Of a stretch of DNA of 61,090 nucleotides, positions 31,417 to 38,967 are shown piece after piece. Positions within the stretch are counted from its first letter, which is position 1; each line of letters starts with the position of its first letter. The notes beneath the pieces are model-generated. The model did no database searches. It was not told the DNA's origin and saw only the letters and a list, made by a program, of their open reading frames with translations. This DNA comes from a bacterium (GTDB lineage: Bacteria > Patescibacteriota > WWE3 > 2-01-FULL-39-13 > JAACPI01): the NCBI GenBank assembly GCA_009995545.1, contig JAACPI010000004.1, positions 1 to 61,090 of the forward strand, written 5' to 3'. Both the position numbers and the translations under genes were made by a program.

Positions 31417-32412
31417 ATGGATTTTTTAGAAAGAATTGAAAAATTAAAAACTAACTTAGGAGTTGTGGAAAAAGAAAAGGAGTTATCTGCTTTGGAAGAA
31501 CAAATCCAAGCACCTGACTTTTGGTTAAATTCTACAGATGCTCAAATTAAAACTCAAAAGTATAATTCTACAAAGAGTATAATTGAAAAATTCATTACAT
31601 TGGATATTCTTTTGTCCGAGGGTAAAGATACCGAAGTAGCAGAAATATTAGATGAGCTGGAAATTCTTACCTACCTATCTGGCAAATACGATTTTAATAA
31701 TGCTTTTTTTTCTATTCATTCTGGTCAAGGTGGGGTAGAGGCGATGGATTGGGCACAAATGTTGGAACGTATGTACCTATCCTACTTTTCTAAGGTAGGG
31801 TATAAGGTAACCCAGGTTGATAGAAATATTGGCGAAGAAGCAGGTATAAAGTCTGCTTATTACAAAGTGGTGGGCGATAATGCCTTTGGTTACTTAAAAA
31901 GAGAGTCAGGGACCCATAGATTAGTAAGGCAGAGTCCTTTTAATGCTAATAGTTTAAGACAAACTTCCTTTGCTAAGGTAGAAGTTTTACCTGAAATCCC
32001 CTTTAAAGAAGTGGAGCTTAATGAAAATGAATTACAAATTACTACAATGCATTCAAGTGGTGCTGGGGGACAAAATGTAAATAAGGTTGAAACGGCTGTT
32101 AGAGTTAAACACATACCTACGGGCATTGTTATCTCCAGTCAGGCCGAACGTTCTCAGCCAAGAAATAAAGAAATTGCCTTGCAGATACTTTATTCAAAGT
32201 TAGTTGAAATGGCGGAGGAAAAAAGAAAATTAGCTGAGGGGGATCATAAGGATTCTGGAACAGCTAGTTGGGGTACCCAAATAAGGTCCTATGTTTTACA
32301 TCCTTATAAACAGGTTACTGACCACAGAACTGATCTAAAAATTACTAACGCTGAGTCTGTTTTAGATGGAAATCTAGAGGATTTTATTGAAAGTGATTTA
32401 CGATCCTTCTAG
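31417..32412 (+). CDS. prfB: Peptide chain release factor 2, encoded without the +1 frameshift
   Basis: The SPF tripeptide (RQSPFNANS) and GGQ (SGAGGQNVNKVETAVR) are present. The N-terminal region is contiguous and in frame. Confidence 0.9.
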   Translation: MDFLERIEKLKTNLGVVEKEKELSALEEQIQAPDFWLNSTDAQIKTQKYNSTKSIIEKFITLDILLSEGKDTEVAEILDELEILTYLSGKYDFNNAFFSIHSGQGGVEAMDWAQMLERMYLSYFSKVGYKVTQVDRNIGEEAGIKSAYYKVVGDNAFGYLKRESGTHRLVRQSPFNANSLRQTSFAKVEVLPEIPFKEVELNENELQITTMHSSGAGGQNVNKVETAVRVKHIPTGIVISSQAERSQPRNKEIALQILYSKLVEMAEEKRKLAEGDHKDSGTASWGTQIRSYVLHPYKQVTDHRTDLKITNAESVLDGNLEDFIESDLRSF

Positions 32413-32485: not shown

Positions 32486-32896
32486 ATGAATCCATCTCTG
32501 CCGGATACAAAAAAACTCATTTCAGTGATGTTGTTTTTACTCGTGGTAGGCTTGTCTTATTTTGTTGGTGTTAAAAAGCCTGTAAATAAAGATATTACGG
32601 GTGATACCCCTTCTAGGGAAGGTAAAATATCGAATGCTTTTTTTATTCCACCCGACTCCACTGTAAAAGAAGCAAAAGTTAGGGGTAGGGTACTACCCGC
32701 CCAGATTGGAGAATTTGACGGGGCAAGCCACAAAGTTGTTGATGGCGACGGTAAGGTTTTAGTATATGCTTATACCGAAGATGATAAACTTAAGCAGCAA
32801 GAGCAGAGCGTTGTAACATTAGTAGGTTCTGTTCCAATTGGAACCAACATAAGCCCGAAAACTTTATTAAAGGTTGACTATATATCGTTTAAATAA
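32486..32896 (+). CDS. Hypothetical membrane-anchored small protein heading the ftsEX operon
   Basis: A 136-aa protein with an N-terminal TM helix (LISVMLFLLVVGLSYFVGV). Its stop overlaps the ftsE start. Confidence 0.5.
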   Translation: MNPSLPDTKKLISVMLFLLVVGLSYFVGVKKPVNKDITGDTPSREGKISNAFFIPPDSTVKEAKVRGRVLPAQIGEFDGASHKVVDGDGKVLVYAYTEDDKLKQQEQSVVTLVGSVPIGTNISPKTLLKVDYISFK

Positions 32897-33552
32897 TGCT
32901 CAAATTCGAAAACGTTTCAAAAAAATACGGCAATAAACAGGTTTTAGATGATGTGGATTTATTCGTCGACGACGGTGAATTTGTTTTTTTAATGGGTACT
33001 TCGGGGGCTGGAAAAACTACCCTTCTTAGAATGATTCTACGTGAAGAGAGCCCTGATTCGGGTAAAGTATTTTTTGATAAAAAGGATCTTCTTCAGTATT
33101 CAAAGTCAGAACTTCCCGGAATCCGGAGAAAAATAGGTTTTATTTTTCAAGATTTTAAACTTTTAGAATCTAAAAATGCTTCGCAAAATGTTTCTTTATC
33201 TTTAGATATTCTCGGAAAATCTGCCAAACAAATAAAACAACTAGTTCCTGAACTTTTAAAAAGCGTTGGGCTTTCTGAAAAGGGTAATAATTACCCATGG
33301 CAACTTAGTGGCGGTGAAAAACAAAGATTGGCTATTGCCAGGGCCGTGGCACTAGAACCTAAACTTATAATTGCGGATGAGCCAACAGGAAATTTAGATA
33401 AAGGTACCAGTTGGGAAATAATTAACTTACTAAATACCTTAAACAAGGAGAATGGCACTACCATAATTGTAGCTACCCATGATGAAACTCTAGTAAACTC
33501 ATTAAAAAAGAAAGTTTATAAAATAGAAAATGGGAGGATTCAAAATGCGTAG
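32896..33552 (+). CDS. ftsE: Cell-division ABC ATPase FtsE
   Basis: GTSGAGKTT Walker A, LSGGEKQRLAIARA signature, and IIADEPTGNLD. Confidence 0.9.
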   Translation: MLKFENVSKKYGNKQVLDDVDLFVDDGEFVFLMGTSGAGKTTLLRMILREESPDSGKVFFDKKDLLQYSKSELPGIRRKIGFIFQDFKLLESKNASQNVSLSLDILGKSAKQIKQLVPELLKSVGLSEKGNNYPWQLSGGEKQRLAIARAVALEPKLIIADEPTGNLDKGTSWEIINLLNTLNKENGTTIIVATHDETLVNSLKKKVYKIENGRIQNA

Positions 33553-34417
33553 ATATTTTAAGACGGCTTCGGACAACTTAAAAATGCAGTCAGTTATTAC
33601 TTTTGTAAGCTTAATTACTAGTACCCTAACTTTTTTTATGCTTTCCTGTTTTTTAAGTTTTGCTTTGTTATCTAACTACCTTTTAAACTTTTTAGAAAGT
33701 AAGGCTCAAATAACCGTATATTTTCAAGATTCTGCTTCTCAGGACCATATTTTAGATGTTAAAAAACAACTTTTAGATCAAGATTTTGTTAGTGATGTTT
33801 CTTATACCTCAAAAGAGGAAGCTTTGAATATATTTTTAAACTTGTATGAGTCCGAACCTTTATTAACCGAAAATGTGGATGTTGGGATTTTTCCAGCCTC
33901 TTTAGATGTTAGGGTTAAAGATATCTCTGATCTGGATAAGGCTTCTGAGTTTTTAAAAAACACTGATGAAATAGAAGAAATTAGCTACTTTAAAGAGGCT
34001 TTAGATCAATTTAAATCTTGGAGTAATGGAATTAAGTATGTTGGCTCTGTTTTAGTCTCGGCTCTTTTACTTATTAGTTTTTTAGTAATGCTTTTAGTTA
34101 CGGGCATAACCATAAGAGACAAATCTGAGGAAATACGCGTAACTAGATTATTAGGCGCTACAAACGGCTATATTCAAGGACCCTTCTTTGCTCAAACCTT
34201 TTTAGTTTCTTTAATTTCGTCTTTATTTTCCGTGGTTCTTTTCATGGGTTTGCTTCCTTTTGTTGAACCCTTTATTAGGCACCAGTTTTCCACAATTCCC
34301 ATACCGCCCGTAAGCTTCTTAACTATTTTGTATATTTTTGTAATACAGTTTGCTATTAACTTGTTTATCTCTTTTACCGGAACCTTGTTTGCGGTTAAAA
34401 AGTACATGAACCTTTAG
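33530..34417 (+). CDS. ftsX: Cell-division ABC permease-like protein FtsX
   Basis: A 295-aa protein with TM1, an extracellular domain and 3 C-terminal TMs. The R..GAT motif is present (RLLGATNGYI). An alternative start is at 33545. Confidence 0.85.
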   Translation: MGGFKMRRYFKTASDNLKMQSVITFVSLITSTLTFFMLSCFLSFALLSNYLLNFLESKAQITVYFQDSASQDHILDVKKQLLDQDFVSDVSYTSKEEALNIFLNLYESEPLLTENVDVGIFPASLDVRVKDISDLDKASEFLKNTDEIEEISYFKEALDQFKSWSNGIKYVGSVLVSALLLISFLVMLLVTGITIRDKSEEIRVTRLLGATNGYIQGPFFAQTFLVSLISSLFSVVLFMGLLPFVEPFIRHQFSTIPIPPVSFLTILYIFVIQFAINLFISFTGTLFAVKKYMNL

Positions 34418-34420
34418 CTT

Positions 34421-35686
34421 ATGCTTAACATACAGAAGGTTTTTTCGATCTTAACGGTTTTGATTGTTTCTGTGTTTTTCGTGTCCGCTATACATGGGCA
34501 AGAAGCTAGTACAACCGATGCTACTGCAAGTAAAACTTCACTAGAAAAGAAAATTCAAGATTACCAAACTAAACTAGACGACCTGGGTAATCAAAAAGGT
34601 TCCTTAGAAAAAGAAAAGCAATCACTAGAAAATCAAATAATTATTACCGGATATAAAATTGAGTCTGCCTCAATAGAAATTGCCGAAAAGATTAAAGAAA
34701 TTGAGTTTTTAACTGATGATTTAAATTTTTTAGAAACAAGATTAGATAAAATTGTTGAATCTATATCCTCCCAAGAAGAAATATTTGATCGCAGAATACG
34801 TGAAAAGTATAAAACTTCTAGGGTCAGCTCTATCCCCCTACTAGTTACTTCTAACGGGTTTTCAACCTTTATGAGTAAGGTTAAATACGATCAAATAGCC
34901 GAAGAAATGGATAAAAGCTTACTAGGGGATATGCGTTCAACTCAAAAATCCTATGAGGCTCAACAAGGAATATTAGCAGATAAAAAATTAGAGATAGAAA
35001 AAGCCAAACAGGTTGTTGAAAATCAAAAGGCCGAGTCTGAGAGACTTAAAAATGAATTTTCTGATCTAAAAAAGCAAAAAGAGAGCCTACTAGAAATTAC
35101 AAAAAACGACGAAAAAAAATATCAACAACTTTTGGACGATGCCAAAAAGGAGCTTGATCAAATACAATCTGCTGCCAGTGTTGTGATAAGAACTGGCAAA
35201 TCCGTTAGTGTAAAAAAAGGGGAAACTATAGGAACAATGGGAAATTCTGGATTTTCTACAGGTGCACATTTACATTTTAGTATCTACCAATACTCTGTTG
35301 AAGATTTTAATAACTACAATGGGTGGGCATGGTATTACTCAAAACACATTAATCCAGTTAACAAGCTAAGTCCCAAATCGGTGACTTGGGGAACAGGTTG
35401 TTATTTAGATCCCTCGGGTAGTGAGACTTCTGGTAAGGGAGATTGGGACTGGCCCATGTCTTCTCCTGTTATTACTCAAAATTATGGTAATAATACTTGT
35501 TACAATTGGATGTATGGGGGTAAGTCACACCCTGCTATTGATATGGTTAGCTACAGTAATATTTCTGTAAAGGCAATTGCTGATGGAGAGGCCTATTTTT
35601 GTAGAAATTGTCTAGGCGATGGCGGAAATGGAGTTTTTGTCTTTCATAAAGGTTCCTACATGAGTGTTTATTGGCATTTAAGGTAG
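34421..35686 (+). CDS. Secreted coiled-coil M23/LytM metallopeptidase (EnvC/PcsB-position partner of FtsEX) with permuted domain order
   Basis: A signal or anchor is followed by about 200 aa of heptad-rich coiled coil. Next comes GNSGFSTGAHLHFSIY (HxH), and further downstream WDWP...SHPAIDM (HxxxD)...YWHLR*. See the finding. Confidence 0.85.
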   Translation: MLNIQKVFSILTVLIVSVFFVSAIHGQEASTTDATASKTSLEKKIQDYQTKLDDLGNQKGSLEKEKQSLENQIIITGYKIESASIEIAEKIKEIEFLTDDLNFLETRLDKIVESISSQEEIFDRRIREKYKTSRVSSIPLLVTSNGFSTFMSKVKYDQIAEEMDKSLLGDMRSTQKSYEAQQGILADKKLEIEKAKQVVENQKAESERLKNEFSDLKKQKESLLEITKNDEKKYQQLLDDAKKELDQIQSAASVVIRTGKSVSVKKGETIGTMGNSGFSTGAHLHFSIYQYSVEDFNNYNGWAWYYSKHINPVNKLSPKSVTWGTGCYLDPSGSETSGKGDWDWPMSSPVITQNYGNNTCYNWMYGGKSHPAIDMVSYSNISVKAIADGEAYFCRNCLGDGGNGVFVFHKGSYMSVYWHLR

Positions 35687-38106: not shown

Positions 38107-38967
38107 ATGCCCCATAGACTTTTTAAGCCAAGACATAAACAAAGATCCCATGCTACCTCTTCGTGGGCTCTGTTATTTTCTAATCTTTTAGTTTTATCTC
38201 TTTTGCTTCTTAGGCATTTACCTGTAAATAAAGAAGGGGCCAAGATCTTAGGTTTTGCTACTAATGTTAAATTAGTGGATTTATTTGATCAGACTAATTT
38301 AGAAAGAGATCAACTGGGGCTAAAAAAACTTAAATACAACTTAGTACTAGAAGACATAGCCAAGCAAAAAGCTGCGGATATGTTTAACGACAATTACTGG
38401 GCACACGTGGCCCCCGATGGCAGAACGCCCTGGGATTTTTTTCAGGAATCAAACTATAAATACTTATATGCCGGAGAAAATTTAGCTAAAGACTTTGATA
38501 AGACTCCAAACTTAATTCAGGCCTGGATGAATTCTCCAACACATCGAGAAAACATTGTAAATCCAAATTACACAGAAATAGGTTTTGCAGTAGTTAATGG
38601 GAAATTAGATGGTGAAGAAACAACCTTAGTAGTTCAAGAATTTGCAAAACCAGAACCGGGTTTTATAACTAGTACTCTAGAGGAACCGGTAGGGACCTTA
38701 GGTATTAATCAGGTTACCGTAGAAGAAACTCCTACAGTTAACTATTTAAGTTCCAGTAGTAAGTCTTTTGTGTCGGTAAATATTTTATATATTATGTATT
38801 TTTCCTATTTTGTCTTGGGATTCTTTGCCATGTCGCTTCTTATTGATGGGGTTTGGGCATATAAAGAAGGTCACTTAAGAGTAACGGGTAACACAGTTTC
38901 TCATATCATTCTTTTTGTAGCTTCTATTGTATTTATTTTCTATCTACACCATCCCGAAATCATATGA
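38107..38967 (+). CDS. CAP/SCP/PR1-like domain protein with a C-terminal membrane anchor
   Basis: NYWAHVAPDGRTPWDFF, YAGENLA and WMNSPTHRENIVNPNYTEIGFAV (CAP motifs). TM helices occur at the N- and C-termini. Confidence 0.8.
   Translation: MPHRLFKPRHKQRSHATSSWALLFSNLLVLSLLLLRHLPVNKEGAKILGFATNVKLVDLFDQTNLERDQLGLKKLKYNLVLEDIAKQKAADMFNDNYWAHVAPDGRTPWDFFQESNYKYLYAGENLAKDFDKTPNLIQAWMNSPTHRENIVNPNYTEIGFAVVNGKLDGEETTLVVQEFAKPEPGFITSTLEEPVGTLGINQVTVEETPTVNYLSSSSKSFVSVNILYIMYFSYFVLGFFAMSLLIDGVWAYKEGHLRVTGNTVSHIILFVASIVFIFYLHHPEII

Follow-up and report, generated by a model that had tools for sequence, protein, structure and literature searches.

The window analysed here is a stretch of 61,090 nucleotides (nt) from a bacterium of the WWE3 lineage of the Patescibacteriota (assembly GCA_009995545.1, contig JAACPI010000004.1), which carries, directly downstream of ftsE and ftsX, a gene whose product contains an M23/LytM domain with its two parts in inverted order. 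Judged by the sequence profiles described below, this domain has the M23/LytM zinc endopeptidase fold in genuinely circularly permuted form, and we assign it to the M23 family (MEROPS M23B) as a permuted variant rather than as a standard member. The gene (34421..35686, forward strand) runs from ATG to TAG and encodes a protein of 421 amino acids (aa), as described in the original prediction, which had been made from the DNA sequence alone. We consider it probable that this protein is an extracytoplasmic peptidoglycan hydrolase and FtsEX partner, which combines a signal peptide or membrane anchor, an FtsX-docking coiled coil and a genuinely permuted M23/LytM catalytic domain. Both the fold and the regulatory system are known, but the rewiring of the catalytic domain is undescribed, ancient and widespread.

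In the native protein, the conserved motifs follow one another as HxH, HxxxD and YxH-COOH, and the colinear M23 order is not found. The Pfam profile Peptidase_M23 (PF01551) matches with 53.8 bits (E 2.2e-14, cut-off 28.7 bits) in two stretches, the pair of partial and swapped matches that the original prediction had expected. Among PDB sequences, aa 336-420 align with the first part of TagE (5j1l), DipM (7qrl) and 3slu up to the YxHL motif, and aa 254-304 align with the last part of the same three proteins (GxTGxSTGPHLHF). A canonical-M23 hidden Markov model (HMM) places its positions 91-129 at aa 262-314 and its positions 2-83 at aa 340-421, and the E-values for the arrangement range from 1e-14 to 1e-38. 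The three approaches thus agree that the second half of the domain comes first. Half A (aa 259-316; 35195..35368, forward strand) corresponds to the C-terminal third of a canonical M23 domain (V.xGexIGtmGnSGfSTGaHLHF ... NP; Pfam profile 61-90, canonical HMM 91-129, PDB alignments) and half B (aa 342-421; 35444..35683, forward strand) to its N-terminal two-thirds (WxWP ... Y365 ... H370xxxD374 ... YWH419LR-COOH; canonical HMM 2-83, alignments with DipM 7qrl and TagE). Between them lies the joint of the old C-terminus with the old N-terminus (aa 317-341; 35369..35443, forward strand).

When aa 336-421 were joined ahead of aa 252-335, the swapped-back sequence gave a single Pfam stretch over profile positions 2-90 of 96 with 66.8 bits, compared with 56.8 bits in two pieces for the native order. 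In the comparison with the PDB, the alignment with TagE (5j1l, E 1.2e-11 versus 1.4e-5 for the native order) crossed the junction in one piece and without gaps, and so did those with DipM, ShyA, LytM, lysostaphin and EnvC. At the junction, YWHLR and the following ASVVIRTGKSVSVKKGE are aligned with YAHLN-KIVVKTGEF--VKKGQ of TagE. The canonical-M23 HMM (134 positions, built independently from 37 colinear proteins) was used to score 235 permuted family members both ways. In native order, all 235 gave two significant swapped matches (mean best-domain score 55.8 bits, span 80 of 134 positions). Once swapped back, all 235 gave one match (mean 111.2 bits, span 127 of 134), at least 85% of the HMM being covered in 231 of them, and the match of the window protein itself extends over positions 2-129 with 125 bits and an E-value of 4e-38. 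Two swapped matches in native order and one colinear match after swapping back indicate that the halves are exactly complementary parts of one M23 domain. The claim that both halves match the canonical blocks, and that the domain is neither truncated nor degenerate, is thus supported by the colinearity of the swapped-back sequence with Pfam, TagE, DipM and LytM. According to these alignments, both new termini are located in the turn that follows the YxHL strand; indeed, as predicted, the open reading frame (ORF) ends right after this motif, with the stop two residues after H419.

These results also bear on the idea that the halves are unrelated leftovers of a decayed tandem M23 duplication, without a functional fold, in a protein that would merely be a structural coiled coil. 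Tandem M23 proteins do occur among the distant matches (P0151, P0194 and P0202), but we regard such a decay as very improbable, since the halves are complementary (canonical HMM 2-129 of 134, with neither overlap nor gap), the catalytic residues are invariant and the structure model is confident and compact, as detailed below. A six-frame scan of the window with the canonical-M23 profile revealed no further M23 piece or orphan half.

The swapped order is a property of a large family. The identical protein is present on 19 contigs, and the closest named homologue, from candidate division WWE3, has 54% identity. The HxH block is located near aa 270 in all the 120 best homologues (identity 40-82% for those of full length), an HxAxD motif near aa 370 is found in 111 of them, and all but one truncated fragment end in Y-[WR]-H-[LM]-x, nearly always as YWHL[KRQ]. 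Comparison of aa 250-421 with 1.8 billion representative proteins yielded 2291 matches at E-values up to 1e-3, and the best 150 of these include 83 permuted and 65 colinear proteins. Altogether, the permuted order was found in at least 235 proteins from independent assemblies, with hundreds in the Candidate Phyla Radiation (CPR) of ultra-small bacteria, and in 200 of 232 permuted proteins, including the window protein, the stop comes exactly two residues after the catalytic YxH histidine. The related loci belong to WWE3, Microgenomates (Gottesman-, Roizman-, Davies-, Levyi- and Pacebacteria) and unclassified Patescibacteria, and a profile of the distant permuted proteins also reaches Saccharibacteria (P0299, GCA_016191105.1), where the gene order is prfB-ftsE-ftsX-M23perm-ctpB. 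An assembly or gene-calling artefact local to the window can practically be dismissed, as the same order and C-terminus recur in these 120 homologues and in the larger set, and as the gene closes with a clean TAG before a gap and a gene of opposite strand, with no orphan halves nearby. Misassembly and a split or frameshifted gene were rejected on the family-wide conservation of the order, and the assembly error envisaged in the original prediction is excluded by its recurrence in hundreds of independent assemblies.

Two side observations concern the family records. The module also exists in a much larger architecture, at the C-terminal end (aa 973-1118) of the 1118-aa protein P0154. Besides, many records of metagenome-assembled genomes (MAGs) with the cluster (L005-L013 and L033-L044) are titled 'uncultured Pseudomonadales', 'Gammaproteobacteria' or 'Saccharibacteria', labels that look unreliable and are no basis for taxonomy, the cluster being of Patescibacteria type.

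The predicted adjacency to FtsEX was verified with Pfam. The gene ftsE (32896..33552, forward strand) encodes an ABC ATPase (ABC_tran, 3.4e-33) with 42-55% identity to the product of the same-position gene in related loci, and ftsX (33530..34417, forward strand) encodes the membrane component with its extracellular domain at about aa 55-155 (FtsX_ECD 9.5e-15, FtsX 1.6e-11). As read from the junction sequence, ftsX overlaps ftsE, and only 3 nt separate ftsX from the M23 ORF. This ftsE-ftsX linkage is conserved in about 60 related loci, across WWE3, Microgenomates and Saccharibacteria; ftsE and ftsX are directly upstream in all but one of the loci with enough upstream sequence, and prfB is found further upstream in about half. 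The distant locus L081 has the order M23perm-ftsE-ftsX followed by a protein with CC_PcsB and CHAP domains (L081 4001-7990), which suggests that one FtsEX may serve two hydrolases.

In some of these loci, a gene for a CtpB-like S41 protease with PDZ domains comes directly after the permuted M23 gene (L080 5186-6418 and L082 5213-6445); in L081 (8014-8975) it comes after the CHAP gene and was called as two ORFs, and it is absent at that position in the window. This protease may process or degrade the permuted hydrolase.

The full-length AlphaFold model (predicted local distance difference test, pLDDT, 85.7) consists of an N-terminal hydrophobic helix, helices at aa 34-56, 62-134, 146-227 and 231-258, and then a beta domain. 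The first part (aa 1-27; 34421..34501, forward strand; MLNIQKVFSILTVLIVSVFFVSAIHG), with a hydrophobic helix at aa 3-22 followed by a low-confidence segment, is a predicted signal peptide or membrane anchor. The model helices of aa 34-258 (34520..35194, forward strand) form a long antiparallel coiled coil of the EnvC/PcsB/RipC type with a last conserved helix, which bears the motif TKNDExxYQxLL...ELxQIQ before the domain, and homologues of the protein match Pfam CC_PcsB. For the full-length model, Foldseek ranked 8tzl_E, the EnvC chain of the V. cholerae FtsEX complex, first in the PDB (E 2.5e-4), ahead of the coiled coils of RipC and PcsB; the coiled coil dominated these matches, and nothing on the catalytic domain came from that search.

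Modelled alone, aa 250-421 form one compact globule (pLDDT 91.2, predicted template-modelling score, pTM, 0.89), whose strands, read via the swapped-back PDB sequence alignments, coincide with the conserved M23 sequence blocks in permuted order. The original prediction had described a Gly/Ser-rich linker of about 25 aa between the halves. The joint is indeed located at aa 317-341, but instead of a flexible linker the model shows an ordered beta-hairpin there (strands at aa 319-323 and 333-337, pLDDT 94-98), with invariant W323, C327, G338 and G340. This insert is characteristic of the present clade, and the joint shrinks to a few residues in other clades, the spacing from HxH to HxxxD varying from 43 to 94 residues among permuted proteins. 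The old C- and N-termini can thus be joined by a very short segment. This bears on the possibility that the halves pair between two protomers, as a domain-swapped dimer, rather than within one chain. FtsEX coiled-coil partners such as PcsB can dimerise; yet the monomer model is confident as a single globule, and the distance of only 43-45 residues between HxH and HxxxD in some clades implies that the old termini lie side by side and that a single chain can readily close the domain, so that we judge a swapped dimer to be quite unlikely.

All the residues expected of an active M23 peptidase are present in the permuted domain. In this family, the H(x)nD motif and the second histidine of HxH bind zinc, whereas the first HxH histidine and a histidine about 30 residues upstream activate water, with a contribution of the tyrosine before HxxxD (PMC9662197). 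In the window protein, the zinc motif is H370-P-A-I-D374 and the HxH motif is H283-L-H285, and the positions given for these four residues in the original prediction proved correct on the nucleotide sequence (codon starts: H283 35267, H285 35273, H370 35528, D374 35540). The third catalytic histidine is H419 in YWHL (35675), which lies 34 residues before H283 once the sequence is swapped back; H419 and Y365 are the equivalents of LytM His260 and Tyr204. By homology, H370, D374 and H285 are the predicted zinc ligands, and H283 and H419 the predicted catalytic residues. Together with Y365, these five residues are invariant in 116 close relatives, and the five are also invariant in 36 distant permuted proteins with a mean column identity of about 32%, in agreement with the claim that HxxxD, the YxH histidine and HxH are all kept, unlike in EnvC.

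Four cysteines are also (nearly) invariant in the WWE3/Microgenomates clade: C327 (35399-35401) in the hairpin insert, C360 (35498-35500) in NTCYNW, and C394 (35600-35602) and C397 (35609-35611), which form a clade-specific CxxC (CRNC) in half B. Among 232 permuted proteins, the domain contains four cysteines in 141, two in 75 and none in 12, and many distant permuted proteins have cysteines as GYPxCSTGxHLHF and xCGS. These conserved cysteines may pair as disulfides or hold a second metal in a structural site.

Several points weigh against the reading of this protein as an active, permuted FtsEX partner. When the domain-only model was compared with the PDB using Foldseek, M23 structures were absent from the top 50 (best E 0.49), and in BFVD the sole significant match was A0A510E7V3_3 (E 7.4e-4, query template-modelling score, TMq, 0.43, 181 columns). 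Foldseek aligns in sequence order, which is the likely reason why M23 structures were not retrieved, and both domain searches were treated as uninformative rather than negative. The structural alphabet of Foldseek also depends on sequence separation. The M23 identity of the fold is thus argued from sequence profiles and structure prediction; similarly, we infer an active peptidoglycan endopeptidase, zinc binding and FtsX binding from conserved residues and by analogy, and the regulatory meaning that we give below to the new chain ends is hypothesised from topology rather than from measured geometry. In one locus (L037), ftsEX is not found within 5 kb upstream. Finally, the sole characterised M23-fold FtsEX partner that we found, EnvC, is a non-catalytic activator and, as seen above, also the best structural match of the full-length model. 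The permuted domain could accordingly be real but behave, like EnvC or NlpD, as a non-hydrolytic LytM factor whose groove binds a different hydrolase and activates it, FtsEX controlling access to the groove. We consider this unlikely: EnvC is devoid of metal ligands, whereas here H370, D374, H285, H283, H419 and Y365 do not vary in hundreds of sequences, down to about 30% identity, which is hard to explain without catalysis; moreover, the conserved cluster contains no amidase gene. As to A0A510E7V3_3 itself, this segment comes from a viral protein longer than 1100 aa, and it could be either a tandem M23 region reading A-B across the repeat boundary or a viral permuted domain.

We therefore retain the permuted, catalytically active FtsEX partner as the preferred reading, and propose for it the following model. 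From the last coiled-coil helix, the chain would enter the domain at what is normally the strand after YxHL, run along the HxH strand as far as the old C-terminus (NP..L), pass by the ordered hairpin, in this clade, to the old N-terminus (WxWP), and then reach HxxxD and stop two residues past the catalytic YxH histidine. The protein would be exported and its coiled coil would bind the extracellular domains of FtsX. It would be autoinhibited until ATP-driven movements of FtsEX, transmitted via the coiled coil, free the hydrolase at the division site, as in EnvC, PcsB and RipC; unlike EnvC, the domain itself would cut peptidoglycan cross-links at the septum. By this topology, the permutation would place both chain ends, and hence the coiled-coil attachment, beside the active-site YxH strand. 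As to its origin, the permuted domain probably arose by a tandem M23 duplication in a canonical ancestor with a coiled coil and an M23 domain, followed by the loss of the outer halves; tandem M23 proteins are those cited above, and no duplication intermediates were found within the permuted family.

A bolder proposal, which we put forward only as a tentative and rather doubtful one, is that the permutation would not be neutral, and starts from the supposed presence at the active site of both the coiled-coil attachment and the terminal strand with H419. FtsEX might then be a direct mechanical switch, in which ATP-driven movement of the last helix seats or unseats the catalytic strand, instead of only exposing a groove, as happens in EnvC, and the strict C-terminal stop (200 of 232 proteins) might be part of this switch. 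In the same proposal, the permutation would be a single rare event marking a deep CPR branch (Microgenomates, WWE3 and Saccharibacteria) as opposed to colinear, Parcubacteria-type lineages.

Around this cluster, the window (G+C about 34%) contains several other features. The gene prfB (31417..32412, forward strand), which encodes peptide chain release factor 2 (Pfam PCRF and RF-1), precedes the ftsEX-M23 group, as in many related loci. Between prfB and ftsE, the ORF list gives orf136 (32486..32896, forward strand), for a small protein of 136 aa that has a hydrophobic segment at its N-terminus and matches no Pfam family; the stop of this ORF overlaps the ftsE start codon; among the related loci, a homologue was detected only in L007 (31% identity). 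This ORF may be part of the ftsEX operon, as a candidate lineage-specific accessory gene. After the TAG of the M23 gene and a 45-nt gap come tsaE and a VanZ-like gene, both on the opposite strand, and nothing coding was found there on the same strand 3' of the M23 stop codon. The gene at 38107-38967 (forward strand) encodes a protein of 286 aa, in which a domain of the cysteine-rich secretory protein family (CAP/SCP) is accompanied by hydrophobic segments towards the C-terminus; it is followed by an overlapping hydrophobic ORF of 83 aa without family. A scan of the window for tRNA and Rfam families gave zero matches and hence no anchor for taxonomy, which the analysis based on named homologues (WWE3, 54% identity).

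To our knowledge, no natural circular permutant of M23/LytM is known. Searches of a paper library for an M23 or LytM domain described as permuted, and for a permuted EnvC, found nothing relevant, in line with the original prediction, which knew of no described permuted LytM domain; permutation is not mentioned in a 2022 review of the M23 family. M23/LytM is among the best-studied wall-hydrolase folds, and the permutant is not confined to one genome: over large parts of the CPR, FtsEX appears to have the permuted M23 protein as its standard partner. Domain databases catch only part of the domain: the best Pfam stretch (profile 61-90 of 96) is of about 30 residues, and the window protein stays below the cut-off of every NCBIfam model. 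As a consequence, these proteins are left as hypothetical or are named after other FtsEX partners ('CwlO-like' or 'EnvC'). The permuted family would exemplify an FtsEX partner whose M23 domain is catalytically intact, as against the inactive EnvC, and provides a natural experiment on the transmission of force from FtsEX to a hydrolase. The permutation may also serve as a rare-genomic-change marker in deep CPR phylogeny.

Permuted wall-hydrolase domains have a precedent in a family other than M23, as the YaeF and LRAT families of NlpC/P60 have a permuted catalytic domain with swapped catalytic residues. Among the HABAS/hybrid-barrel domains, a set that includes M23, topologies are also related by circular permutation, but this is a comparison between families in which a permuted M23 peptidase is not described. 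LytM, lysostaphin, ShyA/MepM and TagE share with the window protein the H(x)3D, YxH and HxH set and the tyrosine before HxxxD; they differ from it in the order of the halves, which is inverted in the window protein, and in the extra ordered hairpin and the four conserved cysteines of its clade. Closer in overall architecture are the colinear proteins of Wolfebacteria, of a MAG labelled Pacebacteria and of Clostridia (P0336, P0385 and P0373 among them), which match the window protein in length and likewise combine a coiled coil with a C-terminal M23 domain, but whose domain is colinear and ends in NP..YL. Some of these colinear proteins also carry the TKxxExxYQ motif in the helix that precedes the domain, which points to a common ancestry of the whole protein, and they are likely to represent the ancestral form. 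The two colinear loci examined (P0385 and P0336; L083 4001-5374 and L084 4001-5263), one from Wolfebacteria and one from the MAG labelled Pacebacteria, have the order ftsW-murG-gltX-M23, without ftsEX, so that the neighbouring division genes differ from those of the permuted form.

Among the known FtsEX partners, PcsB (S. pneumoniae), RipC (M. tuberculosis) and CwlO (B. subtilis) are, like the window protein, coiled-coil proteins with a C-terminal hydrolase-type domain of their own, which in these three is autoinhibited and released by FtsEX; their catalytic domains are, however, cysteine peptidases (CHAP or NlpC/P60) and not zinc M23. EnvC (E. coli, V. cholerae and P. aeruginosa; PDB 6TPI, 8TZL and 8I6S) resembles the window protein in its secreted or anchored N-terminus, its long antiparallel coiled coil, its last helix leading into a C-terminal M23-fold domain and its link to ftsEX. 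The EnvC coiled coil binds the FtsX extracellular domain, and such binding is predicted by analogy for the window protein. The LytM domain of EnvC, however, is colinear and without zinc ligands, and acts only as an amidase activator, whereas the window domain is permuted and keeps all the catalytic residues; furthermore, the coiled coil of the window protein joins the domain at the strand after YxHL and not at the WxWP N-terminus. Since all zinc ligands are present and invariant, there is no degenerate groove of the EnvC type, and on its sequence the window protein is not to be filed as EnvC. It would belong with the FtsEX partners as a class, by its linkage to ftsEX and, in the model, by an export signal and an antiparallel coiled coil that precede a C-terminal domain of the wall-hydrolase type.

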